Below, one piece after another: positions 6,873 to 63,932 of a stretch of DNA of 64,000 nt. Position 1 is the first letter of the stretch. The number at the start of each line of letters is the position of its first letter. The notes under the pieces are model-generated. The model did no database searches, was not told the origin of the DNA, and saw only the letters and a program-made list of their open reading frames with translations. Both the position numbers and the translations under genes were made by a program. Origin of the DNA: an uncultured Chloroflexia bacterium (lineage in GTDB: Bacteria; Chloroflexota; Dehalococcoidia; GIF9; UBA5629); the NCBI GenBank assembly GCA_963754385.1, contig CAVWGE010000004.1, positions 118,780-182,779 on the forward strand. Direction: 5' to 3'.

Positions 6873-7028
6873 GACTTGCCTCGATAGTAACTTTGTAGTC
6901 TTCATTATTATATCTTAAAGTGTTTTGCTATGCTTACAGTTTTAAAGAAGGCAAGCCAGTCATAGCCTGGCTTGCCTTCTTTGTACACTCACACTATTTG
7001 TGTACTGTTGGACGTTGTCGTGGTCTCA

Positions 7029-8018: not shown

Positions 8019-8180
8019 TGTCTGGGTGTGTCCAGGGTCGTGGTATGTCCGAGGTCTGGGTTAACTTTCCAGTCTAATGTTAGTGTAGCAGTGAATTGTT
8101 GCCTCGGTTTTATCCTTGTGTAAAGTTTTGGTAAAAATTCTTTATAATCAGGTTTATCTAGTTGATTATGAGGCTGTTTT

Positions 8181-8471: not shown

Positions 8472-8530
8472 ATCAAAGAGTAATTGGCAGTTCACTTGGA
8501 TAGCTTTTGATGGGGCCGTATGAATCTCGC

Positions 8531-10347: not shown

Positions 10348-10393
10348 AACGCTTTCTGTTTCTGTTTTTAGAAGAAAGTCTCATTAGTAAGTT

Positions 10394-11635
10394 CTAGTCT
10401 ATTCCCGGGGTGGGGAAATGGCTGCACATGGAACGCACTTGTTCGGCTATTCCCTTTTGTATTTTTTTGTCTTCAGGGTTGGAGAGCACCTTCATAATGA
10501 AAGAGGCAATCTGCCTCATTTCCTTGGGGCCAAAGCCTCTTGTTGTAATGGCTGGTGTACCCAGCCTGATACCGCTGGTGATTTGAGGTGGTCTGGGGTC
10601 GTCGGGGATTGCGTTCCTATTTACCAGGATGCCAGAGGCTTCTAGGGCTTCCTGAGCGGCTATACCTGTTATTCCGGTCGGGGTAAGGTCGATGAGGATG
10701 AGGTGGTTGTCAGTGCCACCAGAGATAAGTCGTAAGCCATGTTGCTTTAGCTCAACGGCGAGGACTTGAGCATTCTCCAGTACTCCCTTTTGGTAGGTGG
10801 CGAACTCAGGTTGCATGGCTTCAAAGAAGGCTATAGCTTTGGCAGCGATGGCGTGAATCATCGGTCCACCTTGCATCATGGGGAAAACGGCGGCATCTAT
10901 TTTTGTAGCCAGGGCTTCTTTGCATAGGATAAAGCCGCTGCGGGGACCACGCAAGGTCTTATGGGTTGAAGAGGTGATTATTTGTGCATGAGGTACTGGA
11001 GAAGGATGTAAATTGGTAGCTACTAATCCGGCAATGTGAGCCATATCTGCCACAAGCTGCGCGCCAGCGGCATCGGCTATGCTGCGGAAACGGCTGAAGT
11101 CAATAATTCGGGGATAGGCACTGGCTCCAGCTATTATCAACTTGGGTTTGTGTTTCAGGGCTAGTTTTTCTATCTCGTCGTAATCGAGCCTTTCAGTTTG
11201 TCGGTCAATTCCGTAGGTGACGAACTTGTACCATTTCCCTGAGAAGTTGGCTGGGGCACCGTGAGTCAGGTGACCGCCATGGCTTAAGCTCATACCCATA
11301 ACGGTATCGCCGGGCTTGAGCAGGGCGAAGTAGGCTCCCATATTGGCCTGGCTGCCGCTATGGGGTTGGACGTTGGCATGCTCGGCATGGAACAGTTTTT
11401 TGGCGCGTTCGATTGCCAGGCTTTCGATGGCATCTACATTAGGACAACCGGCATAATAGCGGTGTTGGGGGTAGCCTTCGGCGTACTTATTGGTTAATAT
11501 GGAGCCTTGAGCCTCAAGCACTGCTCGGCTGGCGTAATTTTCGGCAGCGATAAGATTTATAGTTTCCTTTTGCCGCTTAGCTTCTAGCTTAAGAAATCGG
11601 ACAGTTTCTACGTCTTGTTTTGGGTTATTGGACAA
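10394..11635 (-). CDS. glyA: Serine hydroxymethyltransferase
   Basis: 413 aa with [11 protein letters not shown] and the PLP-lysine motif [12 protein letters not shown]. Confidence 0.95.
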
Positions 11636-14067: not shown

Positions 14068-15753
14068 CTAGTCAGCGCTGTTCAGTGACCTGGCGGGCGT
14101 ATTGCCTGTTCCCAGTAATACTTTTTCACCTTCATTCAAGCCAGATAAAATTTCAGACTGAGTTCGGCTCTGTAAACCGACTTCCACCTGCCGCTGCTCT
14201 ATCAGACCTGTTTTGTCGTCTTTAACCACGTAAACCCAACTCTCAGCCCCCTGTAGATGTAAGGCACTGTTGGGTATTAGTAAAACATCTTTATGGCTGT
14301 CGACCAATATCTCAGCCGTAGCGGTAAGCCCGCCTGTGAGATATGTAGCATCCTTGGGGTCGAGTGCAATTTCAACCTTATAGGTAGCGGTGCCTGTCTG
14401 TAACGTCCCATATGGAGAAATGAATTGCACCTTGCCATCGAATACCTTGCCTGGAAAGGTATCAATCAGAATGGTTGCTTTCTGACCTTTTGATATCTTG
14501 ACCACATCTATTTCATCGACTATACCGGTCATCCTGACTGCGCTCTTGTTAGCGAGTTTCAGCACATAGGTATCAATAGGCAAGCCTTCTGGCGAGTATC
14601 TCTGGGTTATCATATCGCCCTCGTGTAGATTTACGTCCACCACCTCTCCATCAAATGGTGCCACTAGTTCAGTCTTGAGTAGCGCTTGCTTGGTACGCTC
14701 AAGGTTTATCAATGCGGTATGGACGTTTATATCGTAATCGCGCTCCGCCTTTAGATTAAGTCCCTGGCGGAAGGTTGAAACGTTCTCTTGAAGTATCTTA
14801 TCTCCAAGTTCAAGGTCGTGCATAGCCAATCGAAGTGTCTCGTTCAACTGTATGGCATCAAAGTCTTTCTCACCTGTCATTTTACTGAGTTCTTCAAGTT
14901 CAGTAAGCGCTTCATTTATTACGGTGAAAGTGGTGCAGGTATCTGGATATGTATAAGCACTAAGTGAACGAGTAGTTTGTTTAAGGACTGTCTGAGTGTC
15001 GGGCATCTCCATTAAGAGAGCTCTCAGCATTTTTGCTGCTTGGTCATAGCTGCCATCCTTAATTTGTTCTTGGATTGTGGACAGGCTATCCATTTCAGCT
15101 GTAAGCCTGTCAATGGCGATATCCACATCATGGCTTGAAATCACCGGCTGGTTCCACCCATTGAGCTCAGTCCTAAGGTTGCGGAATTGAGGGTCGATAT
15201 ATACTTTTTTCGCTGCATCGATATCGTATTTTGCCAGCGCTATTTGAGAAGCTACTTCTTCAAACCTGTCATCAGCTAGCAGAGACAGAGCCTTCTGAAT
15301 TTCCTGCGTAGCGAATTCAAACCGGAGTAAAGCTATTGTATCAGTGTCGGTATAGAAAGACGGCGCGCGTGTAACACCGCAGCAGACTGTCTGAACCACA
15401 TTGTTTATTGCCAGTTCCAGTGCATATTGTGCAGACTCTACCGTCATCTTCTGGGTTGTATCGTCCAATTTGGCAAGCAGAGTGCCGGCTTTAACCACGC
15501 TGCCTTTCTCGACGTATACCTTTTCAATTCTGGCACTATAAGGAGGAGTGAACATGGTTGTATCGAAATAGAGATTGACCGCGTCCGGCATTTCAATATA
15601 GCCATCCGCATCTATATTTACCTCGAGGTCACCTCGTTCCACCGAAGCTATTGTCCTCATTTCAGTGATGGGTTTATTAGAGGCGCAGCCAGTTAGCGCG
15701 ATTGCTACTATCAGCAGGAAAGCTGATACGATGGTAGATGTTCTTTTACTCAT
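14068..15753 (-). CDS. Lipoprotein, efflux periplasmic adaptor-like with long coiled-coil insert
   Basis: 561 aa, lipoprotein signal (LTGCAS). The C-terminal 150 aa resemble HlyD-family beta domains, and the middle is coiled-coil rich. Confidence 0.7.
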   Translation of the reverse strand: MSKRTSTIVSAFLLIVAIALTGCASNKPITEMRTIASVERGDLEVNIDADGYIEMPDAVNLYFDTTMFTPPYSARIEKVYVEKGSVVKAGTLLAKLDDTTQKMTVESAQYALELAINNVVQTVCCGVTRAPSFYTDTDTIALLRFEFATQEIQKALSLLADDRFEEVASQIALAKYDIDAAKKVYIDPQFRNLRTELNGWNQPVISSHDVDIAIDRLTAEMDSLSTIQEQIKDGSYDQAAKMLRALLMEMPDTQTVLKQTTRSLSAYTYPDTCTTFTVINEALTELEELSKMTGEKDFDAIQLNETLRLAMHDLELGDKILQENVSTFRQGLNLKAERDYDINVHTALINLERTKQALLKTELVAPFDGEVVDVNLHEGDMITQRYSPEGLPIDTYVLKLANKSAVRMTGIVDEIDVVKISKGQKATILIDTFPGKVFDGKVQFISPYGTLQTGTATYKVEIALDPKDATYLTGGLTATAEILVDSHKDVLLIPNSALHLQGAESWVYVVKDDKTGLIEQRQVEVGLQSRTQSEILSGLNEGEKVLLGTGNTPARSLNSAD

Positions 15754-45571: not shown

Positions 45572-45647
45572 GAAGTTGTAGCTCAGTTGGGAGTGCGTTT
45601 GATTTGCAGTAAAAAGGTAGCGGGTTCGAATCCCATCAGCTGCACTA
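45572..45647 (+). pseudogene. Degenerate duplicate of tRNA-Ala (anticodon-position TGC, 3' CTA), likely pseudo-tRNA
   Basis: 76-nt cloverleaf-alignable copy of the 46507 tRNA, including about 12 bp of shared 5' flank (gactttttgg). It carries mismatches in the acceptor (2-71 A.G), D (12-23 T.T), anticodon (30-40 G.A) and T (50-64 C.A) stems, A3-T70 instead of the alanine G3-U70 identity pair, and CTA instead of CCA. Confidence 0.55.
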
Positions 45648-45689: not shown

Positions 45690-46247
45690 CTATTTTTTAA
45701 CAAGCCTGAATAGATTGCCGTGTTTGCCATTCAGCGAAAACAAACCATCAGTGTAGCTAAAGATCCTGTCCTTCATGCCGTCATGTATCGCTAAAATACC
45801 GTCTTTCTTTAATACCCTGTGCAGCTCTTCTAATACCGCCCGTTTTTGCCTGACCTCATGAAAGACGTCGCACATCCAGATTATATCGATGCACTGATCG
45901 GGTAAGGTGATTTTTGTATCTGAGAGCATTATTACGATATTGGACAGCCCTTCTTTGCGTGCTCTCTTTTGAACTGTCCGCAGTTGGCGTGGGAAACAAT
46001 CTAAGGCGTATACTGTTCCCTTCTTGCCTACAATCTTAGCCGCAGGGATGGCAAAATCACCGGTACCGCAGCCATAATCAAGAAAGCACTGACCTTCTTT
46101 TAGCAAGTTATATTTGCTCCACAGCCGCCGAATGGCTCGTCCGCTATATAGACTCCTCCACAATGGCCACCAGTAGACCCAAAGTGCATAGTGGGCTCTA
46201 TATAACGGGTTTAACTTTTCTTCAAGGAAGCACTCTATTTTCTCCAC
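45690..46247 (-). CDS. Class I SAM-dependent methyltransferase
   Basis: Motif I FLDYGCGTGDF, motif II YALDCF, post-II IWMCDVFHE; 185 aa. Confidence 0.8.
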   Translation of the reverse strand: MEKIECFLEEKLNPLYRAHYALWVYWWPLWRSLYSGRAIRRLWSKYNLLKEGQCFLDYGCGTGDFAIPAAKIVGKKGTVYALDCFPRQLRTVQKRARKEGLSNIVIMLSDTKITLPDQCIDIIWMCDVFHEVRQKRAVLEELHRVLKKDGILAIHDGMKDRIFSYTDGLFSLNGKHGNLFRLVKK

Positions 46248-46506
46248 AGTTCCTCTTTTCTCTCGGAGGCTAGTTGGAAATTATGGCCGGCATATTTTGG
46301 CAATGCGGTTTCACCTTTTGCGGTATTCTCAGAATCAAAGCACGGGTGAGCAATAATATCCAGGGTTTCTAACTTTCTCTGGCGGGATTTCTTTCTGAAC
46401 GCAAACCGAAGTTGGCATGACGGTTAATTATACCATGCTTTGTCAAATTATCGGACGGGTGCAGGTGGTTGAGTTTGGTTGAGTTTTTTGCTAGACTTTT
46501 TGGCGT

Positions 46507-46582
46507 GGGGCTGTAGCTCAATTGGGAGAGCGTTTGACTGGCAGTCAAAAGGTAGTGGGTTCGAATCCCATCAGCTCCACCA
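46507..46582 (+). tRNA. tRNA-Ala (anticodon GGC)
   Basis: Folded by hand: 7-bp acceptor stem with the G3-U70 alanine identity pair, D stem gctc/gagc, anticodon loop ctGGCag, T arm gtggg-ttcgaat-cccat, discriminator A, encoded CCA. Total 76 nt. Confidence 0.9.
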
Positions 46583-46668
46583 GTAACCTTCCTAAGGCTA
46601 ATATCAATTCAAATCACCTTTCGACTAGCGAAAGTCCCAATACGCAATTAGCTATCCCATTACACCGT

Positions 46669-47565
46669 TTGATTGAAGGATTTCTGTTATCCTGCAAAGT
46701 AGAGAACAAGTCTCCTGCCACAATAAGCTTCTACAAGAACATCCTCGGTAAGTTCGAATGGTATCTCAGTAAATTCGGTATTGAAACGATTGATGCCAGT
46801 ATAATCAGGAACTTTCTAGGATACGTAAAAGACACTGAAAATAGATGGGATAGCACTAATGCGAGAGCTAATAGGATGGTTTCTCCTACAACAGTAAAAA
46901 GCTATTACATCAGTCTATCTGCCTTATTTACCTGGGCAATTGAAGAGCAGTTAATCACGTCTAATCCCATGGCTACAGTGAAGAGGCCTAAGTTACCCAA
47001 TAAATCAGTAAAAGGATGTGAACCTGAGACTTTAAAGATATTATTAAACGCTTTTAATGGTATGAGTTTGAATGATTTACGCAATAAAGCTATGCTCCTC
47101 ATGTTCTTAGATACTGGCTTAAGGTTATCTGAACTTGCAGGTCTGACTTTATCTGATATCAATATTGAGAAAGGCATCATCAAAGTCATTGGTAAAGGCA
47201 ATAAAGAAAGATACGCTAGAATAGGAGTCAAGACACAGAAAGCATTATGGAATTATTTAGCTCATAGACCAGTGGAAAAGGAGTATGTATGGTTGGGAAA
47301 AGGCTATGGCAAAATGACAGTAGATGGCATTGCTCTTGTTATTAGAAACTTGGGTAAGAGATTAGGGATTAGATTGTCACCGCATAGGTTGAGACATAGT
47401 TTTGCTATAATCTTCCTAAGGAACGGAGCTAATTCGTTTGAGCTACAGATAGCGTTAGGCCACACTACCTTAGAAATGACCAGGAGATATACACAGGCAT
47501 TAGGTTTTGATGATGTGTTCAAGAGGCATGTGGTGGCGAGTCCGGTAGATAGATTGATACGTTAG
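46669..47565 (+). CDS. Tyrosine-type site-specific integrase
   Basis: N-terminal SAM-like core-binding domain (LIEGFLLSCKVENKSPATISFYKN) and catalytic domain with R..(HRLRHSFA)..Y (RRY). The track ORF starts inside the tRNA; start moved to an in-frame TTG at 46669 because no ATG is available, so the boundary is approximate. Confidence 0.8.
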   Translation: MIEGFLLSCKVENKSPATISFYKNILGKFEWYLSKFGIETIDASIIRNFLGYVKDTENRWDSTNARANRMVSPTTVKSYYISLSALFTWAIEEQLITSNPMATVKRPKLPNKSVKGCEPETLKILLNAFNGMSLNDLRNKAMLLMFLDTGLRLSELAGLTLSDINIEKGIIKVIGKGNKERYARIGVKTQKALWNYLAHRPVEKEYVWLGKGYGKMTVDGIALVIRNLGKRLGIRLSPHRLRHSFAIIFLRNGANSFELQIALGHTTLEMTRRYTQALGFDDVFKRHVVASPVDRLIR

Positions 47566-47779
47566 ACTATGATGCGGTAGAGGCACATAAGATATCATCG
47601 CCCATTGATAGCCTCAAATCTTGACTGTATTGTGATAGCAAACCCAACTTAAGAAATGGTATAAATATTGGGGCAGGTCATCATGAGTAGCGATACAATA
47701 ATCTATACAATAATCTTGAGTAGCGAACTATATGCTAAGTCAGCGTCATTTATAAAAGTAAAGGCCGGTACTGAAAGTC

Positions 47780-48049
47780 ATGAACGAAGAAAACACTTGT
47801 GAGAACGCAATAGAACAGGAAGAACAAATCAGAGAAAGAATGGATGCTAACGGAATTAGGTGGCGGAAAATCTATGTTGGAGGCGGTGCTCACGCTAAGA
47901 ACTGGATACAACAGAGTAAAGAAATTTACGGCGAAGAAAATTTACAAATTGAAGAAGTAGAGTCGCCTGGCCCTAAATGCTACGAGGAGAGTAGCGAAAA
48001 ACAACTCAGAATCTGGGTAAGAATAAATAAAGCAACCCCTGTCACATAG
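47780..48049 (+). CDS. Hypothetical acidic protein (island cargo)
   Basis: 89-aa ORF, no family recognised. Confidence 0.3.
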   Translation: MNEENTCENAIEQEEQIRERMDANGIRWRKIYVGGGAHAKNWIQQSKEIYGEENLQIEEVESPGPKCYEESSEKQLRIWVRINKATPVT

Positions 48050-48070
48050 TAGGACACCAATATTGTCCGG

Positions 48071-48463
48071 CTAGAAGGTCTCTACCTCCTCGACGGCTAT
48101 TCTCACCACGTTGCGCACCTTTATGTTTCTGCTCACCCACTCGGCTACGGCATTGTCGAAAATGTCGCCGGATTTGAATATTTCACCCTTTCCCCAGATG
48201 CGACAGCCCTTGCGTGCTACTGCGTCTAGACAAATAACGGCAACCTGCGGATTTTCCTTGATGTTGGCGATGGTGCGTGGAGAAGCGATGTCAGCGAATA
48301 GAATATGCTCATCATCTAGAATACGTATAGAGCCTTTTGCAGAAACATTCGGTTTGCCGGTCTTGCTTGCCGTGGCCACGAGTGATGGATGTATTTCTCG
48401 GATTGCCTTTTTTGCTTCTTCAGTGAGCTTTACCATGGTTACCTCCTGTAATAAGATTGGCAC
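48071..48463 (-). CDS. Pyridoxamine 5'-phosphate oxidase-like FMN-binding split-barrel protein
   Basis: 130 aa; pattern HPSLVATASKTGKPNVSAKGS...ENPQVAVICLD typical of PPOX/general stress protein 26 family proteins. Confidence 0.7.
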   Translation of the reverse strand: MPILLQEVTMVKLTEEAKKAIREIHPSLVATASKTGKPNVSAKGSIRILDDEHILFADIASPRTIANIKENPQVAVICLDAVARKGCRIWGKGEIFKSGDIFDNAVAEWVSRNIKVRNVVRIAVEEVETF

Positions 48464-48500
48464 TATTATAAATCAGTCCTTAGTCTCTGTACATACCTTT

Positions 48501-48533
48501 GACCTGCCCCCAATACTTATACCACTTCTTAAC
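48501..48533. repeat. R repeat copy 1 (gacctgcccccaatacttataccacttctta)
   Basis: One of four 30-33-bp near-identical copies (48501, 48835, 51335, 55769). The reverse complement reads GTGGTATAAGTATTGGG, an extended -10-like motif, positioned 6-40 bp upstream of minus-strand ORFs. Confidence 0.55.
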
Positions 48534-48566
48534 AAATACTCATAAGGACGACAAATCAAAGCAATT

Positions 48567-48818
48567 CTAAACTCTACCATTTGTTATTGACCTCAGTTTA
48601 TCCTTTCTCTTAAGTCGCTTAATTCTATGCTCCATTCTAGAGGCATGCGCTTTATCGTCACAATCCCACTTGGCTAGCAATTTAACAGGCCTTCTTCCTC
48701 TAGTGTATTTAGAGCCAGTCCCTGAGTTGTGTTGCCTTATCCGCTCATCAATATCATTACTGATTCCTGTATAAAATGTTCCATCATTACACTCAACTAT
48801 ATAAACACACCAATTCAT
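48567..48818 (-). CDS. GIY-YIG (URI-domain) nuclease family small protein
   Basis: Motifs VYIVECNDGTFYTGISNDIDERIRQHN and KYTRGRRPVKLL; 83 aa. Flanked on both sides by R repeats. Confidence 0.8.
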   Translation of the reverse strand: MNWCVYIVECNDGTFYTGISNDIDERIRQHNSGTGSKYTRGRRPVKLLAKWDCDDKAHASRMEHRIKRLKRKDKLRSITNGRV

Positions 48819-48834
48819 TACAATTTCCTATAGT

Positions 48835-48867
48835 GACCTGCTCCCAATACTTATACCACTTCCTAAT
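48835..48867. repeat. R repeat copy 2
   Basis: gacctgctcccaatacttataccacttcctaat, 16 bp upstream (minus strand) of the GIY-YIG start. Confidence 0.55.
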
Positions 48868-48894
48868 CTAGTCCCACAAGCACAATAGCCTCAG

Positions 48895-48966
48895 GCGCAG
48901 GCTTTGGGATTTGATGATGTATTCAAGAGGCATGTGATGGCGTCACCGGTGGATAGGTTGATGTAG
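48895..48966 (+). pseudogene. Integrase 3'-terminal remnant b (..QALGFDDVFKRHVMASPVDRLM*)
   Basis: About 72 bp that are roughly 85% identical to the last 24 codons plus stop of the 46669 integrase. An in-frame TAG lies 9 codons upstream, so no upstream integrase body remains. Confidence 0.6.
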
Positions 48967-49039
48967 GACTAGTCTGTAGGGCAGGTCAGTTATCTGAGTG
49001 AATTAACGTGCGTCATATTATCACCTATTTTGCTACTTG

Positions 49040-49678
49040 TTAAGCAACGCGTATACGAAATCGAAGCGTTGAGAATATCATAGAACCAATGATGGCAGTG
49101 GCAAAAATACCAATTGACACAATAGGATTTAGGTATGATATGCCCATTGCAATCACGAAAAGGGCTATACCAACCATTACTGTCATATTACGTATTCTTA
49201 CTTCATGCAAGTCAATGTCTGTATCTACTAGTCGATATCTTCCCGTGGCATATGTCCACTTTATGTAGCACATAAGCATACAGGCCAGAAAATTGCCCCC
49301 ATATAATAGGACTGGCAACTGTTGTCCCATATACTCTCCTAGAAGAGACGTTGAAAAGGGTAGTAGCGCCGTAAACATCAGAAATAGAATGTTTATCCAG
49401 ATCAGCATGGTGTCTGCACGTTTGATGAAACTGAACTGCCAATGATGCATGCACCACATATAACCTAGCACTAAAAACGTAACGGCGTAGCTTGCGAATT
49501 TTGGCCACATATCAAGTAACTGCTTAAATTCCTGGTGCATTGAGCTTTCCCTAAACACAGGAACACCGAGCCCCAATACCAACAGCGTCATTACGATAGC
49601 GAAGACCCCATCGGTTAGAGCCTCGAGTCTTTTTGGAGATAATGCAATTTTTGTCACTTGCTGTTCTGAATTAGTCAT
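49040..49678 (-). CDS. TMEM175-like (DUF1211) putative cation channel
   Basis: 212 aa, 6 TM segments. N-terminal signature RLEALTDGVFAIVMTLLVL matches the RxxxFSDGVFAIAITLL filter helix of TMEM175/DUF1211 proteins. Confidence 0.65.
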   Translation of the reverse strand: MTNSEQQVTKIALSPKRLEALTDGVFAIVMTLLVLGLGVPVFRESSMHQEFKQLLDMWPKFASYAVTFLVLGYMWCMHHWQFSFIKRADTMLIWINILFLMFTALLPFSTSLLGEYMGQQLPVLLYGGNFLACMLMCYIKWTYATGRYRLVDTDIDLHEVRIRNMTVMVGIALFVIAMGISYLNPIVSIGIFATAIIGSMIFSTLRFRIRVA

Positions 49679-49844
49679 AGTTTACCCCCTTATTTAGAAT
49701 TGTCTGGACTATTAGAATCACCTGTAGTGCTCCCATGTTACATCCCTATATATTAGCCGTCAACGAGAAGCAGTTAGTAATTTGTAAATACTAATAAAAT
49801 TGAGGATCTGCCTTCGGGTCAGTTACGTAATGGATAATTCGATA

Positions 49845-49913
49845 GCATTAGGATTTGATGATGTGTTTAAGAGGCATGTGCTGGCTAGTCCGGTGGATAG
49901 GCTGGTGAGGTAA
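49845..49913 (+). pseudogene. Integrase 3'-terminal remnant c (..IALGFDDVFKRHVLASPVDRLVR*)
   Basis: 69-bp homologue of the integrase C-terminus plus stop, isolated in non-coding DNA. Confidence 0.6.
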
Positions 49914-50111
49914 GGTAACTGAGTGTGTTCGACGTCAGCAAAAATTGGACACATTGTGGATACTAGGTAATGGACAGTCTGGGGTTTGCTGCTGCCGCCT
50001 GAGAAGACTATTGCTGATGGATGCAGAAATACCGCAGTTCATTCAACATTAAGGCAGAGATTTGAAAGGAGTCCAAGACCCCCCTCATCTCACTACCCGT
50101 ACCTCTTTAGC

Positions 50112-50564
50112 TTACTCAGATGGTTGCTTTTTGGCCTTGAGCCTTCTCGCCTCCTGATCCTCGGCTATCGCCTGTTCTCTAGTCAAGTCGGCTTTCCTTC
50201 TCGCCTGCTTTTTGACTAGTCGCCCAGCTTCCTCAGTAGCGCGCTTCTCTGATCCCTTGGCTTTCCTTGCTTTCAAAGCCTTTTCAATCGCCTCTTCTCT
50301 AGTCAAGTCGGCTTTCCTTCTCGCCTGCTTTTTGACTAGTCGCCCAGCTTCCTCAGTAGCACGCTTCTCTGATCCCTTGGCTTTCCTTGCTTTCAAAGCC
50401 TTTTCAATCGCCTCTTCTCTAGTCAAGTCGGCTTTCCTTCTCGCCTGCTTTTTGACTAGTCGCCCAGCTTCCTCAGTAGCGCGCTTCTCTGATCCCCTGG
50501 CCTCCTTTAGTGATTGTTCTTCTTGGTCTCTCATCGTTCTACCTATCAACATTGAGATAATCAT
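50112..50564 (-). CDS. Basic tandem-repeat protein (three 40-aa repeats KARKAKGSEKRATEEAGRLVKKQARRKADLTREEAIEKAL)
   Basis: ORF spans three near-perfect 120-bp DNA repeats. Lys/Arg/Glu-rich helical repeats with a short hydrophobic N-terminus. Coding status is supported only by the maintained frame across the repeats. Confidence 0.5.
   Translation of the reverse strand: MIISMLIGRTMRDQEEQSLKEARGSEKRATEEAGRLVKKQARRKADLTREEAIEKALKARKAKGSEKRATEEAGRLVKKQARRKADLTREEAIEKALKARKAKGSEKRATEEAGRLVKKQARRKADLTREQAIAEDQEARRLKAKKQPSE
50161..50520. repeat. Near-perfect 3 x 120-bp tandem direct repeat
   Basis: Units 50161-50280, 50281-50400 and 50401-50520 are identical except for about 1 nt internally and divergent outer edges. 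Confidence 0.85.
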
Positions 50565-50805
50565 GGAACCGGCGGTAAATCACTTTGTTGCAGCAACTTG
50601 CCCCAAATTATTGTACTACCTTTTATGTTAGGGTTGTCAAGACATGAACGGTTAGTACAGTGTACTCCACCCTATTAATCACGCGACCAGTAAGTTCGCT
50701 ACATTATGGCTCAAGAATTGTGGAGACAGCTTGATGCCGCAGAGGCTATTGGGACATACTACACTGATGATGACGAATAGGTACTGTCAAGCGGTAGGAT
50801 GCTTG

Positions 50806-50859
50806 GATGCGGTGGAAGCGCATAAGAAGTATTCACCTATTGATAACATTAAAATATAG
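50806..50859 (+). pseudogene. Divergent integrase C-terminus-like remnant f (DAVEAHKKYSPIDNIKI*)
   Basis: Shares the pattern D-x-V-x-x-H-x-x-x-SP[IV]D-x-[IL]-x-[IR]-stop with the integrase tail (DDVFKRHVVASPVDRLIR*). Starts the 560-bp segmental duplication. Confidence 0.4.
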
Positions 50860-50958
50860 CTTCTTCATATCTGGACTAGTTCTCCGGGGTGCAATCACTC
50901 AAAATACCCCTCGTCAATCCACTACTGCTCAATTTAACCCTGTATTGATCTAATTTCC

Positions 50959-51330
50959 TCAAGCTTCTGTTTCCTCTATATTAAGCTCTTCATCCCCAGA
51001 TACCTCGGTTAAACTCTCTTGCTCTGTTTCTACCTCTTCCCTCCCTTGCTCTTGATAGGCTGAAAAGTACTCTGCGATATTAATGTCACGATAGTACACT
51101 TCACAGACCAACCTATTGTGTTGTACACCGTCCGGTGATCCCAATTCAACCTTCTTGTTGTGGATAAGGCCAGAGAGCTTTTGTTCGACAGCTATCGCTC
51201 CTTTCCCACTCTTCGGAGCAGTGTAACCTTTCACTTGCACGAGATTTCCTGTTTCATCTCCGAGTTCCCACTTGGGAGATACCTCGAAAGTGTTTCCGTC
51301 AATAACTGCTACTACGGTGAATGTCTCCAA
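50959..51330 (-). CDS. SNase-like (thermonuclease/OB-fold) protein, probably non-catalytic, with acidic C-terminal tail
   Basis: VIDGNTFEV and VQVKGYTAPKSG align to the SNase DGDT and RLxGIDTPE regions, but with Asp-to-Asn and Asp-to-Tyr substitutions at metal ligands. TTG start; paralogue at 55393. Confidence 0.5.
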   Translation of the reverse strand: METFTVVAVIDGNTFEVSPKWELGDETGNLVQVKGYTAPKSGKGAIAVEQKLSGLIHNKKVELGSPDGVQHNRLVCEVYYRDINIAEYFSAYQEQGREEVETEQESLTEVSGDEELNIEETEA

Positions 51331-51334
51331 TACT

Positions 51335-51366
51335 GACCTGCCCCCAATAGTTATACCACTTCTTAT
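51335..51366. repeat. R repeat copy 3
   Basis: gacctgcccccaatagttataccacttctta, 5 bp upstream (minus strand) of the SNase-like gene start. Confidence 0.55.
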
Positions 51367-51395
51367 GTTAGTCTACAAGAACAATAGCTTAGGAG

Positions 51396-51470
51396 CAGGC
51401 ATTGGGGTTTGATGATGTGTTTAAAAGACATGTAATGGCTAGTCCGGTCGACAAACCGAAGAGGTCATAA
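51396..51470 (+). pseudogene. Integrase 3'-terminal remnant d (..ALGFDDVFKRHVMASPVDKPKRS*)
   Basis: Homologous to the integrase tail through SPVD, then divergent; preceded by the same roughly 40-bp spacer sequence as remnant b. Confidence 0.55.
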
Positions 51471-51514
51471 AAATCCTCAAAGACAGACAGGTTGATGCTG
51501 AAGATGTTGCTCAG

Positions 51515-51781
51515 GTGCTCCAAGCTGTTAAGGAATTTCGGACTGAAAAGGAAACTCAATCGTATCACTTAGTTATGAAAAATGGCGCGGTTGATAATAT
51601 TGGGCAGGCTGCAAAGCCGCATCGTATCACTTTTAAGAATAATCCCCAGTTTTTGAGGCTTCTGGACAGCCTTATTCGAAAAGGTCGTGGGGTTCCAACT
51701 ATTCAAAGTGAGCTTAGGGCTAATGGTTATGACGTGCCTTACGCTACTTTGGGGAGGTGGATTCGAAAGCATAAGAAGTAG
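51515..51781 (+). CDS. Small HTH protein (transposase/resolvase-type HTH)
   Basis: C-terminal GRGVPTIQSELRANGYDVPYATLGRWIRKHKK resembles HTH_23/HTH_28 DNA-binding domains of IS-family transposases; no catalytic domain. Confidence 0.45.
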   Translation: MLQAVKEFRTEKETQSYHLVMKNGAVDNIGQAAKPHRITFKNNPQFLRLLDSLIRKGRGVPTIQSELRANGYDVPYATLGRWIRKHKK

Positions 51782-51863
51782 GAGAAATATCAGTCAGTGG
51801 TATTTAGGATGCTATGCCACCGTATTCATCACGTCGTTCAAAGCGTTAATGTAACTAACCTGC

Positions 51864-53120
51864 TTACATGGACTCGCTTGTTTTAGTCCGCCTTAGAATT
51901 ACACTTAAGATAAGACCCATAACACTGACAGCAGCACTGACCAGGAAAGCCACATTATAGCTGCTGGTAACATCAAAAATATAACCAGCCAGAAACGGAC
52001 CGGCGGCTGCCCCGATGCAATAACCAAAGTTAATAACCCCCAGAATCAAGCTATGCGACCTCAGCCCAAAAAGCTCTGCCACTAGAGGCGACGCTGACGC
52101 AGCACAGCCCCCAGTGGCAAAACCAAAGATAGCAGCAGACAGATACAGCGCCCATGCCTCTGTGGCTGGTATTAACCAGAACAAAGCAGCTGTCATCAGA
52201 ACAAAGCCGATAATAAAAACCTGCCTATTCCCGATTCTATCGGCAGCCCAACCCAACACCAACCTGCCGATAATACCCGCGCCGCCAGCAGTAGCCAAAA
52301 TGTTGGCCGCAGTGGCAGCTGAAAATTCCAGGTCAGTGGCATACGGTGCAATATGCACCAGGATGGCATACCATGAAAATCCCAAACAAAGGTACATGCT
52401 CAAAGCAAGCCAGAATTGTCTCCCGGAAGCTGCCTCCCTGAGGGAAAATACCTTGGCGCTCCCTTTCAGCTCCATTTCTTCTTTACTCTCCCCGTGGGGC
52501 GTTAGACCCATCTGGGCCGGGTCACGCCTTAGAAGCTGGGCAAAAAGTATAACAGCAACCAAAGTCATGCTGCCCAGTATGATGTAGGATACACGCCAAT
52601 CATAAATAGAGATAAGCCAATTAGCCAACGGTGGTGCAATCAATCCGCCTACTCCTGAACCGGCTATGACAATACCGGTCATCGCACCTCTTCTCTTAAC
52701 AAACCATCTAGCTACTGTTGATGCTATTGGGACAAATGCTCCACTCATGCCGGTGCCTATTATCACTCCATAAAACAGATATAGCTGCCAGAGAGCATTG
52801 GTTTGTGACATCAGCAAGTAGCCTAGACCAAAAATGAAGCCACAAACCGAAATCACTATCCGAGGGCCAAGCCTATCGTTAACCCTCCCCACAGCAATAG
52901 CCAGCAAGCCTTGTATAATCCAAAAAACTGAAAAAGCGCCTGAGGTTACTGCTCTGGTCCAGCCAAGGTCGGTCAGCATTGGCTTGAAGAAGATACCAAA
53001 CGTGAATTGCATGCCAAGCATCAACAGCATAATAAAGAAGGCAGCTACCACCACGATATAGCCATAAAAGAACCGTGGTTTAGCCCTGGTAGGGGATTGG
53101 TAAACTCTCTGATTAGGCAT
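51864..53120 (-). CDS. MFS transporter (oxalate/formate antiporter-like)
   Basis: 12 predicted TM helices and MFS motif between TM2 and TM3 (GRVNDRLGPR). Start placed at the internal Met; the track ORF extends to 53162. Confidence 0.85.
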   Translation of the reverse strand: MPNQRVYQSPTRAKPRFFYGYIVVVAAFFIMLLMLGMQFTFGIFFKPMLTDLGWTRAVTSGAFSVFWIIQGLLAIAVGRVNDRLGPRIVISVCGFIFGLGYLLMSQTNALWQLYLFYGVIIGTGMSGAFVPIASTVARWFVKRRGAMTGIVIAGSGVGGLIAPPLANWLISIYDWRVSYIILGSMTLVAVILFAQLLRRDPAQMGLTPHGESKEEMELKGSAKVFSLREAASGRQFWLALSMYLCLGFSWYAILVHIAPYATDLEFSAATAANILATAGGAGIIGRLVLGWAADRIGNRQVFIIGFVLMTAALFWLIPATEAWALYLSAAIFGFATGGCAASASPLVAELFGLRSHSLILGVINFGYCIGAAAGPFLAGYIFDVTSSYNVAFLVSAAVSVMGLILSVILRRTKTSESM

Positions 53121-53340
53121 ACTAAAACCAAGCGCAGCTAAGTGCTGTGCCTTTAAGGGCAACTTTCACTACTGAAACCCAATTATAGCAGCACCGACCT
53201 GTGCGTTAATACTTTCCGCGTCATTTTGTTACACTCGTTACTAGCCCACCCTGCTGTAGAGCTTTGGCTGGACTTGCACACATCCCGATTGAACACCAAC
53301 AGACATAGTCTCTATAGTGAATGATTTCACAAAGCTATTT

Positions 53341-53520
53341 CAGCTTAACGGTGACTTGTAGAACTTCAGGCTATATTGGAAAGTAACTGACCCGCTTGTG
53401 CTTAGCTACTGACCAGCCTGTAAAGCTTCAGACTATCCCCAAAGTTAACTGACCTGGTATGTCCTAGCTAGTAACTCGCTTGTAATGCTTCAGGCAATCC
53501 TCAAAGGTTATACTTCTGGT
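53341..53520. repeat. Degenerate roughly 62-bp tandem repeat array (about 3 units) in non-coding DNA
   Basis: Units of form aactgacc-gcttgt-cttagct / actgacc-gcctgtaaagcttcag-c-at-c-caaagtt recur three times with substitutions. Confidence 0.5.
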
Positions 53521-53661
53521 ATACCGGAGAACCATACTCAAATCAGATCAACCGCCAAGATACATAATATCTAGAGTTGAAAGCCAGCGGGTTAAAACTG
53601 GCGGACGTAATAAGAGGACAGGGCTAAAGCAGAAGAGGGATAAACCATAATGCTAAAAGAG

Positions 53662-54015
53662 TTAAACCCTCTGTCTGTGGTTATTAAAGATAACTCCGAG
53701 CCTGTTAACCCTTATGTTAACCCCAAATTGACTACCTGCTCTTACCGTGGAGGTAGCGCAGGTTTTTATTTGAAGCGAAAATTGATTTCCTGAATTGTTG
53801 GTTAAAAACCTATCGATGTCCGTATCTCCACCTGGGCCAGGCCTAATTTGGCATTTAAGGTGCTTGTGTGCAATCTCATCAAGCAATGATTCGAAGGCAT
53901 GTCCTTTCACTGGGCGTAGAGTATTAGGGTCAGATACTACTACTTCATCAACAACGTCCCAAGACACGTTGACCCCTATTCTATCCATGAATTCTGAAAA
54001 TATATCCCTTGCCAT
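53662..54015 (-). CDS. Hypothetical protein (island cargo)
   Basis: 117-aa ORF; no motif recognised with confidence. Confidence 0.35.
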   Translation of the reverse strand: MARDIFSEFMDRIGVNVSWDVVDEVVVSDPNTLRPVKGHAFESLLDEIAHKHLKCQIRPGPGGDTDIDRFLTNNSGNQFSLQIKTCATSTVRAGSQFGVNIRVNRLGVIFNNHRQRV

Positions 54016-54177
54016 TCAAATATTCCTTCGGAGGTCTACAACACTGATGATGAAAATACCGATCAGGGTCAGATTCAACAGCGGTGCCTTACTATGGCCT
54101 AGCTCAAGGAATATTGTACCGCTCGGTATTTCGTAATGGAATGCCACTACCGTATGACTAGTAATTAGACGATCGGT

Positions 54178-54213
54178 TTGCCTAACAATTAGTCGGTTTG
54201 ATTATGAATCCGT
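54178..54213. repeat. Direct repeat DR-A copy 1 (acgatcggtttgcctaacaattagtcggtttgatta)
   Basis: About 36 bp, roughly 80% identical to 55166-55200. The two copies bracket a 1-kb AT-rich segment containing two small TM-protein genes. Confidence 0.5.
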
Positions 54214-54354
54214 TACTCGAAGCTAAGTGTTAAGCAGACTGAAGCTGAACGTTAAGCAAGACCTTACGAGAGGGAATCAGTAGGTCTAAATGGTATTCAC
54301 TGCCTATGCTTGTAGGAGCAGAGTGATTTCATAAAGAAATAGGAAGTATTTGTA

Positions 54355-54645
54355 TTATTCAACCTGTCTTCTGATCCACGCAGCGACAAAAGCTAATATC
54401 AAAAAAAGGATCCCAAATCCAATGAACATTAGTTGAATGGTAACAAAAGATGCAACTGACAAGATATCAAAGCTTACTAATACTAAATTAGCGATACCAC
54501 ATGCGAAGCAAATACATCCAAGAACGAATAGTACCCATGCCGCTGTTGTAGCTAGATTTTTAAGCGAGTTCGGCACTACTATCCTCTGACGCTGTTCCTG
54601 CAATTTACGCTCCTCATGTACTCTTCTAGTCTTTACTTCTGTCAT
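54355..54645 (-). CDS. Small membrane protein (2 TM)
   Basis: 96 aa with a charged N-terminus then two hydrophobic helices; markedly AT-rich. Confidence 0.4.
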   Translation of the reverse strand: MTEVKTRRVHEERKLQEQRQRIVVPNSLKNLATTAAWVLFVLGCICFACGIANLVLVSFDILSVASFVTIQLMFIGFGILFLILAFVAAWIRRQVE

Positions 54646-54693
54646 TACTATTCCCTCACAACAATTTCTCAGTCACCATATTAATTTAGGCGA

Positions 54694-54906
54694 TTATCCC
54701 TTAAGGACAAGTAAACTGCCGATTAAATAGGCAATTCCTACGAAAAGCAGAACAATGCTATACAGCCATATCGCCTTAGCTCTATCTTGTTTCTTGTCTT
54801 CTGATGCTGATAGATAACGACCAAAGTGGAGCATAAATGCTCCGATTCCAATTATGACCCATGCTATGCCTATTATAATGAGCTTGTAGATTATATTAGC
54901 ATCCAT
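54694..54906 (-). CDS. Small membrane protein (2 TM)
   Basis: 70 aa, two hydrophobic helices separated by a KKQDRAKA loop. Confidence 0.4.
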   Translation of the reverse strand: MDANIIYKLIIIGIAWVIIGIGAFMLHFGRYLSASEDKKQDRAKAIWLYSIVLLFVGIAYLIGSLLVLKG

Positions 54907-55165
54907 CTTGATTGCCTCCGATATCTAGAGGTTACAATCCAAGTTTTCCTTGTTGCCAGGGATAATCGCATTAGTTTATCTTAACTCACTATATTACAGC
55001 ATAAAATGGTAATAAATAAAAGAGCAAGATGCTTAGTTATATTCGTTGGCTAGAGTAAGATCCGATCATGTGAAATACTGCTAGACAAACTAACCTTCTG
55101 ATTAAGAATCAAAAGGCCAAATCAAAGTCAGTCTAGGGATACTCGGCTTTCACTTAACAATCAAA

Positions 55166-55200
55166 CGATCGGTTTGCCTACCAATCAAACGGTCAGATTA
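55166..55200. repeat. Direct repeat DR-A copy 2
   Basis: acgatcggtttgcctaccaatcaaacggtcagatta, directly abutting integrase remnant e. Confidence 0.5.
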
Positions 55201-55202
55201 CA

Positions 55203-55232
55203 GCCAGTCCGGTAGATAGGCTGGTACGTTAG
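55203..55232 (+). pseudogene. Integrase 3'-terminal remnant e (..ASPVDRLVR*)
   Basis: 30 bp matching the last 9 codons plus stop of the integrase. Confidence 0.5.
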
Positions 55233-55239
55233 AGACTTA

Positions 55240-55293
55240 GATGCAGTGGAAAGTCATAAGAGGTATGGGCCAGTGGATAATATTAAAATATAG
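55240..55293 (+). pseudogene. Divergent integrase C-terminus-like remnant g (DAVESHKRYGPVDNIKI*)
   Basis: Paralogue of remnant f; begins the second copy of the 560-bp segmental duplication. Confidence 0.4.
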
Positions 55294-55392
55294 CTATGTT
55301 ATGTCGGGACTAGTTCTCTTGGGTGCAATCACTTAAAATACCCCTCGTCAATCCACTACTGCTCAATTTAGCCCTGTATTGATCTAATTTCC

Positions 55393-55776
55393 TCAAGCTT
55401 CTGTCTCCTCTATATTTAGCTCTTCATCCCCAGATACCTCGGTTAAACTCTCTCGCTCTGTTTCTACATCTTCCCTCGCTTGCTCTTGATAGGCTGAAAA
55501 ATACTCTGCGATATTAATACCGCGATAGTATACTTCACAGATCAACCTATTGTGTTGTACGCCGTCCGGTGATCCCAATTCAACCTTCTTGTTGTGGATA
55601 AGGCCAGAGAGCTTTTGTTCGACAGCCATCGCTCCTTTCCCACTCTTCGGAGCAGTGTAACCTTTCGCTTGCACGAGATTTCCTGTTTCGTCTCCGAGTT
55701 CCCACTTGGGGGATACCTCGAAAGTGTTTCCGTCAATAACTGCTACTACGGTGAATGTCTCCAATACTGACCTGCC
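55393..55776 (-). CDS. SNase-like protein, paralogue of the 50959 ORF
   Basis: About 93% identical to the first copy over the shared length. The track ORF (to 55818) reads through R repeat copy 4 to an upstream ATG, so the true start is uncertain. Confidence 0.5.
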   Translation of the reverse strand, partial: GRSVLETFTVVAVIDGNTFEVSPKWELGDETGNLVQAKGYTAPKSGKGAMAVEQKLSGLIHNKKVELGSPDGVQHNRLICEVYYRGINIAEYFSAYQEQAREDVETERESLTEVSGDEELNIEETEA

Positions 55777-55794
55777 CCCAATAGTTATACCACT
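55769..55794. repeat. R repeat copy 4
   Basis: gacctgcccccaatagttataccact, followed 50 bp later by the attR tRNA fragment. Confidence 0.55.
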
Positions 55795-55843
55795 GAAGGT
55801 GATTATACCACTAAGCATTTTGTAACGGAATGTCTCGTTTGAC

Positions 55844-55895
55844 TCATAGTCAAAAGGTAGTGGGTTCGAATCCCATCAGCTCCACCATCTTTGGG
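55844..55895 (+). repeat. attR: partial direct repeat of tRNA-Ala 3' portion (anticodon stem to CCA)
   Basis: cgtttgact[cat]agtcaaaaggtagtgggttcgaatcccatcagctccacca matches tRNA positions 25-76 except for 3 nt in the anticodon loop. The 40-nt 3' part is identical, so crossover must lie 3' of the loop. Confidence 0.8.
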
Positions 55896-56030
55896 GCAAT
55901 TTTCGCCCGCCACAACTCAAAATTTCCTCGGTTCGATTGATGTTCAGGTTGCGTCTAGTGCCCCTGGCAATATATACTTTGATGTTGGTTTTGGGTCAAA
56001 AGCTTATAAATATTGTTTGGGAGGTGGGCA

Positions 56031-62582: not shown

Positions 62583-63284
62583 ATTACCATCTTTAATTAA
62601 TTCGTGTGTTGATTGGGCTAGAGGTCATGGGCTTAAAACAGTTACGAAACAGATAAGAAGCGTTTTAATTGATAGAAATATTGAAATCCTGCCCAAAACA
62701 CAAAGATCATTGTACGCATGTAAATTTAGGCAATGGCTGTGAGAAGCCCTGTTTATATTTATACTTCGTGTTTTTGTCTCATAGTTGGATTTGGGGTACG
62801 CAACATGAAAGGGGATGAAATACTGGCAACGAAGACAATAGTGGTTAAATTTTATTGCTCCTGTCTATAGATACTACAATTAATGCTTTGTATGGATGCA
62901 ATCGATCAGAAGATGAAACAAGGGCTAAAGTTATCATACTTATTTCATCTCCCGGTGGTTCCGTACTTTCACGGGCTATCGCTTACAACTATCTCGTGTG
63001 GAGAAAGGCTTGCCTGTGGATGTAACACGTAATTTTCAGTGTTGATAGTTGTGTTTTGGGGGGAGCAAGAGGCTCTCTGTCCCTCAGCAAGATTTCTGCT
63101 TCATGGTGTGAGCCTGGTTTCCAAAATGAGTGGAAGAGACACTGAGAGAGACTAAAGGGCTTAAGATTGACATAAAGAATATCGCCAAGGTTGTAGCAAA
63201 TAGGTAAGAACTTTCAGGATGTCACAAATGCCATGGTGAAAGAACTACTGAATCCTGATGATACGTGTCTGAGCATTAGCTACT

Positions 63285-63932
63285 ATGGCAATGAAAATCG
63301 TATTAATAGTCGTACTGTGCATCCTGGCGTTTCTTATCCTGTGGCTTAGCCTGGCTAAACTAATCAGGAAGATGTTTCGTTTTCCGGCACCGGCGTTTAT
63401 CGGGCGGCTTCTGGATAGCGGCTACAGGAGGCGAATACAGCCGCCGGCTCAGTTGATAGAGCGCAGCGGCATAAAGAAGGGTATGAATGTTCTGGACCTC
63501 GGCTGTGGCAGCGGGGCTTTTACACCTTTTATTGCCCGGACAGTCGGCGAGAAGGGCAAGGTCTATGCGCTGGACATACAAGCGGATATGTTGAAGCAGC
63601 TTGAGAATAAGCTGTCCAGGCCTGAAAACAATGATATTAAGAATATCAAGCTCATCGAGGGCAATGCCTATGAGCTGCCATTTGAGGACAATTCTCTGGA
63701 TTTGGTGAATATGGTGACTGTCCTCCAGGAGATACCGGACAGAAACAGGGCTTTGCAGGAGGTCAATAGGGTATTGAAGCCGGGAGGGTTTTTTGCTGTG
63801 ACGGAACTGTTTCCCGACCCTGACTATCCGTGGAAGTCCACTACTATCAAGTTAGGCAAGGGAACCGGCTTTGTGGTGGATGAGGTTTCGGGGAATTTTT
63901 TCAACTACACAGTCAGATTTAAGAAGCCGTGA
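63285..63932 (+). CDS. Membrane-anchored class I SAM-dependent methyltransferase
   Basis: N-terminal TM helix, motif I VLDLGCGSGAF, motif II YALDI, and a Methyltransf_11-like core. Confidence 0.8.
   Translation: MAMKIVLIVVLCILAFLILWLSLAKLIRKMFRFPAPAFIGRLLDSGYRRRIQPPAQLIERSGIKKGMNVLDLGCGSGAFTPFIARTVGEKGKVYALDIQADMLKQLENKLSRPENNDIKNIKLIEGNAYELPFEDNSLDLVNMVTVLQEIPDRNRALQEVNRVLKPGGFFAVTELFPDPDYPWKSTTIKLGKGTGFVVDEVSGNFFNYTVRFKKP

Follow-up and report, generated by a model that had tools for sequence, protein, structure and literature searches.

The stretch analysed here, hereafter the window, is 64,000 nt of contig CAVWGE010000004.1 from an uncultured Dehalococcoidia bacterium, and positions 46583–55887 of it probably form a composite integrative island. 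We assign the island to a Dehalococcoidia-specific family that targets the tRNA-Ala(GGC) gene by way of a Xer-like integrase; the island itself is probably the outcome of repeated acquisitions at this hot spot, partial decay and reshuffling. The evidence comes from the ends of the island, the integrase gene, the variability among related loci, the mosaic interior and the integrase remnants within it (Table 1). The original prediction for this DNA had described one integrative element bounded by the tRNA and a displaced copy of its 3′ part. The comparative data agree with a tyrosine-integrase island between these bounds, but not with its unitary nature: instead of a single clean element, the island is a patchwork of several units that have decayed or accreted.

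As predicted, an intact tRNA-Ala(GGC) gene (attL) is followed by a tyrosine integrase gene, and the 3′ 52 nt of the tRNA recur as a direct repeat at the far end of the island (attR). The two copies are identical at 49 of 52 positions (94%). Reading of both stretches placed all three differences in the anticodon (ctGGCag versus ctCATag), as had been claimed, and 39 nt (46544–46582 and 55849–55887) agree without a mismatch. The start-to-start spacing of the two copies is 9,305 nt. The downstream copy had been placed at 55844–55895, which is 8 nt too far to the right. The attachment sites had also been described as exact to the nucleotide; this holds for the limits of the repeat, whereas the crossover could lie anywhere within the 39-nt block. 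Neither ARAGORN nor Rfam called a tRNA at the downstream copy, and thus the repeat is not part of a second tRNA gene, the possibility that had been named as speaking against an island. tRNAs are the only RNA family that Rfam detects in the island region. The interior is AT-richer than its surroundings, as noted before, with a GC content of 43.2% vs. 47.2–47.5% in the flanks.

We compared the window with Dehalococcoidia contigs from metagenome-assembled genomes (MAGs) and metagenomes (the loci with L numbers). In the attR of the window and in the first tRNA fragment of L004, the 5′ anticodon stem is kept and the loop is altered (CTCATAG and TTAGGAG, respectively). In the L041 fragment and the second L004 fragment, identity begins at the loop (ACTGGCAG). 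These variants place the crossover 3′ of the anticodon, in line with the original prediction, and probably somewhere in the 39-nt identical block.

The integrase open reading frame (ORF) is open from position 46522, inside the tRNA gene, and its start codon is uncertain. A start at TTG 46669 gives a protein of 298 aa, and homologues are annotated at 298 or 343 aa. Pfam recognised Phage_integrase (PF00589, 1.2e-31) together with SAM-like N-domains. In an alignment with E. coli XerD (1A0P) the residues R, K, HxxR, H, and Y are all aligned, and the motif GKGNKER around the K is identical. Among the NCBIfam models, those for XerA/XerD/XerC came closest, at scores far under their cutoffs; the integron-integrase model TIGR02249 gave 50.3 bits against a cutoff of 265 and matched the C-terminus only. 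We concluded from the Pfam matches, the XerD alignment and the NCBIfam scores that the enzyme is a short, Xer-like integrase in which no arm-binding domain can be recognised. Its relatives were found solely in MAGs of Dehalococcoidia/Chloroflexota.

The junction of tRNA-Ala(GGC) with the integrase gene, next to a syntenic left flank, is present in L001–L004, L007, L041, L043, and L044. In L041 both flanks are 89–92% identical to the window and the integrase is 93% identical. The L041 island is 4.5 kb long and carries different cargo; it lies between a tRNA end at 10049 and a tRNA fragment of its own at 14479–14524. Past the repeat, homology of the core genome is regained after 3–56 nt, at window position 55890 for L041 and 55943 for L030. 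The related islands are all small (1.5–9 kb), with metabolic or membrane cargo, and the two successive tRNA fragments in L004 reveal tandem elements. Another sample yielded a sister contig (L036) whose interior is 99% identical to that of the window and has the same arrangement, short of one 120-nt repeat unit. L044, whose integrase is 93% identical, was considered as a comparator for possible cassettes and was uninformative, as it has unrelated downstream cargo and an IS1595 transposase. Between its tRNA fragment and the right-flank homology, L041 contains 72 nt (14525–14596) that are missing from the window and may be a trace of an earlier event.

A second metagenome scan with the conserved block of the short-chain dehydrogenase/reductase (SDR) gene on the right flank recovered L039, a 1.3-kb metagenomic contig. 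It contains the 3′ 67 nt of tRNA-Ala(GGC) and, approximately 250 nt later, an orthologue of the SDR gene on the right flank; directly 3′ of the tRNA, ∼50 nt bear a weak resemblance to window 55888–55940. Judged by this order, L039 appears to have the empty-site arrangement, in a fairly distant relative. The empty-site search proposed for this locus thus found the tRNA-Ala-to-SDR arrangement in a distant genome and none in the same species.

The mosaic makeup is evident in the integrase gene itself. Compared with L004, the gene is 69% identical at 46695–47109, 97.7% identical at 47110–47408 (7 mismatches in 299 nt; L004 10469–10767), and ∼85% identical thereafter. A near-identical segment of 299 nt between two genomes whose flanks are 78% identical points to recent horizontal exchange or recombination between integrase alleles, and the gene appears to have been patched with alleles of other lineages. 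The segment 48966–49721, which holds the TMEM175-family gene, is 89% identical to L015 1888–2643 vs. 69% for the flank of that genome, and this difference also argues for horizontal exchange. In addition, an end module of ∼560 nt is duplicated at 89% identity (50802–51360 and 55236–55794, repeat finder). The module consists of a sequence otherwise found downstream of int (element E), a 123-aa ORF and a motif termed P (described below); one of its copies is joined to an integrase remnant of the D3 type and the other to the tRNA fragment.

Truncated copies of the final ∼70 nt of int (D3a) recur, all in the same orientation in the window, at 48898 (D3b), 49842 (D3c), and 51396 (D3d), with a partial copy at 55203. 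A more strongly diverged remnant at 50668–50850 has 42% aa identity to integrase residues 249–306. When a 70-nt profile was used, D3 copies were detected in nearly all fetched integrase-related loci, and they were co-oriented within each locus; for example, L004 and L010 have four each, L006 has five, and L018 has eight. Neighbouring copies in L018 lie 0.5–1.1 kb from each other, except for one gap of 3.5 kb, and usually enclose a single minus-strand ORF. The eight L018 remnants occupy 8.3 kb (3041–11300) in which there is no integrase gene, and a degenerate tRNA-Ala 3′ fragment is located at 476–507 of that contig.

The extent of truncation could be measured for 38 int copies. All of them reach the stop codon; 37 retain the last 30–191 nt of the 927-nt gene and one retains 425 nt. 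Similarly, tblastn returned 29 C-terminal integrase fragments vs. 4 N-terminal ones. D3 variation falls mostly at third codon positions and conservation ends at the stop codon. This codon-periodic variation indicates that the D3 copies diverged as working gene ends. A separate conserved core at the DNA level was not detected in D3, the conservation being solely 3-periodic. The left boundaries of the remnants fall into recurrent classes common to several genomes, and one class (47395–47401, in L006, L007, L010, and L011) coincides with the integrase mosaic breakpoint at ∼47380–47409. No tRNA fragments were found between D3 copies in the window or in L018. The integrase-tail arrays most likely result from tandem accretion and subsequent decay.

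The P motif (consensus TGACCTGCCCCCAATAsTTATACCAC, also given as GTGGTATAAnTATTGGGGGCAGGTCA) is, in the window, confined to the island. Exact matches number five for the GGGCAGGTCA core and five for the GTGGTATAA box, with 0.3 expected for GTGGTATAA, and every copy in the island is located just upstream of an ORF. Read on the coding strand, the motif has the form of an extended -10 box (TGGTATAAn) with a G-rich leader behind it. Because of this TGnTATAA box and the position upstream of ORFs, we consider P a putative portable promoter. A simple sigma-70 scan did not flag the motif, and the promoter-like hits of that scan were not above chance. Short inverted copies of GGGCAGGTCA exist and are part of the promoter-like P motif. 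Outside the window, P precedes unrelated genes in L001, L006, L010, L015, L018, L027, and L041, sometimes with a conserved upstream part of ∼40 nt (x1); the L027 case is near a reductive dehalogenase gene.

P, x1, and D3 are joined in a recurrent order. The composite intergenic module that begins at 48834 consists of P-x1 (48834–48897), D3b (48898–48965), and a degenerate plus-oriented P (48966–48988). The P-x1-D3 joint occurs twice in the window, twice in L041 (∼80 nt apart), and also in L015 and L035. In L035 the GIY-YIG/P-x1 end is 96% identical to the window, but the D3 and the downstream cargo are different; the D3 at that joint is 83% identical to its neighbour in the window and 97% identical to the L006 copy. 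The two L041 modules (12873–13210) have no ORF between them and resemble an "empty" unit.

These features could be explained as follows. Elements of this family would use the recombinase encoded next to the tRNA to integrate into tRNA-Ala(GGC), within the 3′ part of the gene. The incoming element would bring a tRNA copy that reaches from the anticodon stem to the CCA end, and recombination 3′ of the anticodon would restore an intact tRNA at attL. The original 3′ part of the tRNA, fused to the mismatched anticodon segment of the element, would be displaced to attR. In the course of several acquisitions at the hot spot, later elements or cassettes accumulated and older int genes shrank to their last 30–190 nt; the end module was duplicated, and the integrase gene was patched from alleles of other lineages. 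Most cargo genes face the integrase, and many share the promoter-like leader TGGTATAAnTATTGGGGGCAGGTCA, from which they may be expressed. Given the intact integrase and the perfect 39-nt identity of attL and attR, the whole 9.3 kb could still excise as a unit. The excised circle would be expected to carry the junction GGAATGTCTCGTTTGACTCATAGTCAAAAGGTAGTGGGTTCGAATCCCATCAGCTCCACCAGTAACCTTCCTAAGG (55835 via the tRNA fragment to 46583), and the repaired empty site would have the tRNA ending CAGCTCCACCA followed by TCTTTGGGGCAATTTTCGCC.

Several observations weigh against this explanation. Pfam detected no excisionase, conjugation, mobilisation, or phage/virion domains in the ORFs of the island. 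The exact right-junction sequence was unmatched in the metagenome collection, in which neither a same-species empty site nor a circle was found. The contig with the presumed empty site is short and fairly distant (its SDR is 77.6% identical). In L030, 6.9 kb of unrelated, integrase-free genes lie between the tRNA and the SDR gene, so that no single ancestral state can be assigned to the locus. Across genera, conservation of the integrase equals or exceeds that of the core genes beside it; the integrase could therefore be a long-term resident and not a recent arrival. Lastly, accretion with random deletion predicts neither the bias of the remnants to the last 30–190 nt of int nor the lack of tRNA fragments between them.

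Among the alternatives, the one that survives best, although we regard it as unlikely, is a fixed relic, which is compatible with a composite island. An ancient acquisition would have been inherited vertically in an immobile state, with the integrase and the repeats as its remnants. The many integrase pseudogene fragments and degenerate modules in the interior fit such a history, as do the missing excisionase and transfer genes (Pfam), the failure to find a circle or an empty junction in the metagenome collection, and the unchanged arrangement of the L036 interior at 99% identity. In a relic, however, one would not expect an intact integrase ORF with all catalytic residues, or attL and attR sharing 39 nt without mismatch when decay has brought the older tRNA copy (45572) down to 86%. 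Two further observations speak for more recent activity: L041, at ∼90% flank identity, already has completely different cargo, and the 299-nt integrase segment is nearly identical to that of a genome only 78% identical in its flanks, implying recent exchange.

An integron-like capture platform is a somewhat more doubtful proposition. A resident integrase linked to tRNA-Ala would serve as an anchor, and promoter-bearing cassettes would recombine into the last 30–190 nt of int by site-specific or Campbell-type homologous recombination. Each cassette would bring a replacement C-terminal end and displace the old one downstream. The rows of co-oriented tails (4–5 in the window and 8 in L018) would then be a record of captures, and P-x1-D3 would be an attC-like joint. 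Capture would account for the retention of the stop-codon end in co-oriented copies (37 of 38 with the last 30–191 nt), for the occurrence of only 4–5 N-terminal fragments against 29 C-terminal ones, and for the lack of intervening tRNA fragments in the window and L018. Third-position variation in D3, as if each copy had encoded a working C-terminus, and the coincidence of the integrase breakpoint with a remnant boundary are also in its favour. So are the same P-x1 end abutting different D3 and cargo in the window and L035, the closely spaced P-x1-D3 modules of L041, and the contrast between completely different cargo and an integrase that different genera have conserved at this tRNA.

The case for capture is weakened by the properties of the proposed joint. 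Its D3 part shows codon periodicity and no DNA-level core. When the inter-cassette modules were examined as attC-like hairpins, the DNA folded no better than shuffled sequences (z = -0.34 and +0.49). D3 was also considered as a mimic of the tRNA target and rejected; local alignment against shuffles gave p = 0.03–0.06 for one copy and 0.70–0.75 for the consensus, so that the likeness is not significant (overall range 0.03–0.75). The left boundaries of the remnants are scattered from -190 to +42 relative to D3 and define no single crossover point. The shared TMEM175 segment does not move with either adjacent D3, and in neither of the near-identical pairs (L036 vs. the window, L004 vs. L043) does the difference amount to exactly one D3-to-D3 unit. 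Features of integron integrases are missing from the enzyme, and the skew toward short tails could be due to survivorship, since homologous recombination with the live gene would remove long int fragments.

It is very improbable that the 52-nt repeat is a by-product of local tRNA duplication, with no attachment site and an integrase unrelated to the boundaries. Duplication does occur here, as the full-length degenerate copy 935 nt upstream, promoter region included, demonstrates. The downstream copy, however, begins in the anticodon stem, with the 5′ 24 nt missing; equivalent fragments, which begin in the anticodon stem or loop, close the L041 and L004 islands; and homology to the core flank is back within 3–56 nt of the fragment end. 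Least probable of all is a prophage or conjugative element remnant, for which the sole support is a tyrosine integrase beside a tRNA, as against ORFs free of phage or conjugation domains (Pfam), no integrase relatives among 2.9 million viral contigs (IMG/VR), and related islands of 1.5–9 kb with metabolic or membrane cargo.

The composite-island reading has a precedent in the same class. According to McMurdie et al. (2009; PMC2764846), the high-plasticity region 1 (HPR1) of Dehalococcoides begins after tRNA-Ala-1, and Dehalococcoides genomic islands are integrated at tRNA-Ala with repeated tRNA-Ala 3′ fragments; in strain VS a tRNA repeat is accompanied by a truncated homologue of the tRNA-adjacent recombinase. 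The locus in the window is therefore of a known kind, in an uncultured lineage of the same class. It shares with D. mccartyi HPR1 the class, the tRNA-Ala target, the adjacent recombinase, the repeated tRNA 3′ fragments, the truncated recombinase homologues, and the highly variable content. It differs in coming from an uncultured Dehalococcoidia lineage and in having no reductive dehalogenase genes in the island. Arrays of int 3′ remnants and the P motif also set the window apart from the D. mccartyi loci, as far as these are described in that account.

The locus also resembles classical tRNA islands. At attL an intact tRNA adjoins int, and attR holds a displaced tRNA 3′ fragment; GC is lower, presence is strain-specific, and tandem arrays occupy one tRNA. 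Unlike in such islands, the integrase is short and Xer-like with no recognisable arm-binding domain, an excisionase is not recognised, and the internal repeats are integrase tails instead of tRNA fragments. Integration into tRNA genes is said to fall into sublocation classes (a scheme reportedly proposed by Williams in 2002), and tandem accretion at tRNA sites is reportedly seen in the Asn-tDNA islands of K. pneumoniae and in streptococcal integrative and conjugative elements (ICE) and cis-mobilizable elements (CIME).

In common with chromosomal integrons (IntI, attI, attC), the locus has a Xer-related recombinase at a fixed chromosomal site and an adjoining array of short, mostly single-gene, co-oriented units with a recurring module of ∼70–150 nt between them. 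The content is likewise wholly different between relatives (the window, L018, and L041). The integrase, at 50 bits against the cutoff of 265, is unlike an integron integrase; the recurring module is what remains of a coding sequence, and it has neither a conserved inverted-repeat core nor a stable fold. Moreover, the units carry their own promoter-like motif and point to the integrase, and att repeats of the tRNA delimit the platform. For archaeal integrases of the SSV type, attP is located within int, and integration leaves one N- and one C-terminal fragment flanking the provirus. Integrase gene fragments beside tRNA-linked integrated elements are common to both systems, but the integrase in the window is intact and the fragments are nearly all C-terminal tails in tandem.

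The island extends to uncultured Dehalococcoidia a tRNA-Ala hot spot known to feed genes, dehalogenases included, into Dehalococcoides. As a tRNA-Ala island it is ordinary, yet it is well delimited: the integrase is intact, the limits of the repeat are exact, and a sister locus holds other cargo. What sets it apart is the systematic survival of co-oriented integrase tails, together with a promoter-like leader shared by the cargo. If the arrays reflect a directed process, they would represent a new route of cassette accumulation in streamlined genomes, with a readable order of acquisitions. If they reflect decay only, they would provide a sequence marker for old islands in Dehalococcoidia MAGs.

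Table 1. Coordinates of the island features and adjoining genes in the window.
Feature	Position	Strand	Evidence
Degenerate tRNA-Ala-like copy, anticodon TGC, no G3:U70	45572–45645	+	ARAGORN; Rfam 36.3 bits vs. 69.5 for the functional tRNA
Class I methyltransferase gene, between degenerate and functional tRNA	45690–46247	-	Pfam Methyltransf_31/11/25
tRNA-Ala(GGC), intact; attL	46507–46582	+	ARAGORN; Rfam tRNA 69.5 bits
Repeat block within tRNA-Ala(GGC)	46531–46582	+	Repeat finder
Xer-like tyrosine integrase	46669–47565	+	Pfam, NCBIfam, XerD 1A0P alignment
D3a: last ∼70 nt of int (QALGFDDVFKRHVVASPVDRLIR), segment recurring in truncated copies	47494–47565	+	
P motif (TGGTATAAATATTGGGGCAGGTCA), just 3′ of int, 3 nt before ATG	47657–47680	+	Motif scan
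PNPOx-like flavoprotein gene	48071–48463	-	Pfam PNPOx_N 1.6e-17
P motif (plus strand TGACCTGCCCCCAATACTTATACCAC), upstream of PNPOx gene	48500–48525	-	Motif scan
Small GIY-YIG domain protein gene	48567–48818	-	Pfam 8.6e-18
Composite intergenic module: P (48834–48859) with upstream part x1, then D3b, then degenerate P	48834–48988	.	Repeat finder
TMEM175-family channel gene	49040–49678	-	Pfam 9.2e-29
D3c: truncated int 3′ end, 94% identical to L006 copy	49842–49911	+	
Lys/Glu/Arg-rich repeat protein gene, 150 aa	50112–50564	-	Sequence, repeat search
Strongly diverged int C-terminal remnant, then int-downstream element E	50668–50850	+	tblastn
123-aa ORF, paralogue of 55393–55764	50959–51330	-	300-nt repeat, 89% identity
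Second P-x1 module (51334–51395; P at 51334–51359) joined to D3d (51396–51463)	51334–51463	.	
MFS transporter gene	51864–53162	-	Pfam MFS_1 1e-59
Three small ORFs (117, 96, and 70 aa)	53662–54906	-	96- and 70-aa products are predicted membrane proteins
Partial int 3′ end (last ∼30 nt), then element E; opens duplicated end module	55203–55233	+	
Paralogue of 123-aa ORF, adjoining attR (earlier "SNase-like", 55393–55764/55818)	55393–55764	-	Repeat finder
P motif and second TTATACCAC box, immediately inside attR	55768–55811	-	
attR: displaced 3′ 52 nt of tRNA-Ala, anticodon CAT	55836–55887	+	Repeat finder, sequence reading
Core genes of the right flank (SDR and enoyl-CoA hydratase), with synteny in L030, L041, and L039	56031–57599	+	Pfam

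Ten of the 13 island ORFs are oriented towards the integrase. The earlier labels for the GIY-YIG, PPOX-like flavoprotein (PNPOx_N), TMEM175, and MFS genes all proved significant in Pfam. The cargo had also been called unusual, and we do not find it especially so for such islands. The label "SNase-like" for the 123-aa ORFs is unverified and was dropped: Pfam gave no match even at E ≤ 5, a PDB sequence search gave none at E ≤ 10, and a single-sequence AlphaFold model was unusable (pLDDT 42). No reductive dehalogenase domain was found by Pfam in the island ORFs. On our reading of the sequence, the PNPOx-like gene likely starts at ATG 48436, which has an AGGAGG ribosome-binding site. The identical GIY-YIG protein is present in L035 in another context. 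The Lys/Glu/Arg-rich ORF contains a 120-nt tandem repeat at 50167–50501 (2.8 copies, 98% matches), and the lower unit count in L036 indicates that the repeat copy number differs between samples. A second tandem repeat, of 62 nt (2.1 copies, 77% matches), is located in non-coding DNA at 53380–53506, between the MFS gene and the 117-aa ORF. Exact-protein look-ups with the right-flank SDR and enoyl-CoA hydratase returned no record.

In L025–L033 the tRNA is present, and neither the integrase, D3, nor the P motif was found. Within this set, L027 has a reductive dehalogenase gene (9376–10773) ∼2 kb downstream of tRNA-Ala(GGC).

The left flank has the gene order ClpC-like ATPase, VTT protein, methyltransferase, 257-aa protein, and TM2 protein, which is syntenic among relatives. 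Directly after the TM2 gene, and 935 nt upstream of the functional tRNA, lies the degenerate tRNA-Ala-like copy. The original prediction had overlooked it, along with the repeated internal modules of the island. The copy is 86% identical over 94 nt to 46487–46580, including 20 nt upstream of the tRNA (repeat finder). The left-flank alignments of L004, L006, and L030 extend into the degenerate copy, and it marks the ancestral tRNA position. The methyltransferase gene at 45690–46247 is present in L025, L026, and L041 and absent from L004 and L030; L041 has the degenerate copy too, whereas L025 and L026 have the methyltransferase without it. This gene is likely an older, integrase-less insert with tRNA copies on both sides.

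The strain represented by L020/L021 is 96.6% identical to the window; its contigs part from the window sequence 47 nt before the tRNA (position 11176, window 46460). The contigs end within 130–190 nt after the divergence, which could be another insertion or a repeat-caused assembly break, and they were uninformative as island comparators. Another methyltransferase gene in the window, outside the island at 63273–63929, shares 56% protein identity with L018 4511–5167. That L018 gene sits between two integrase-tail remnants, and the methyltransferase at 45690–46247 is 32% identical to it.

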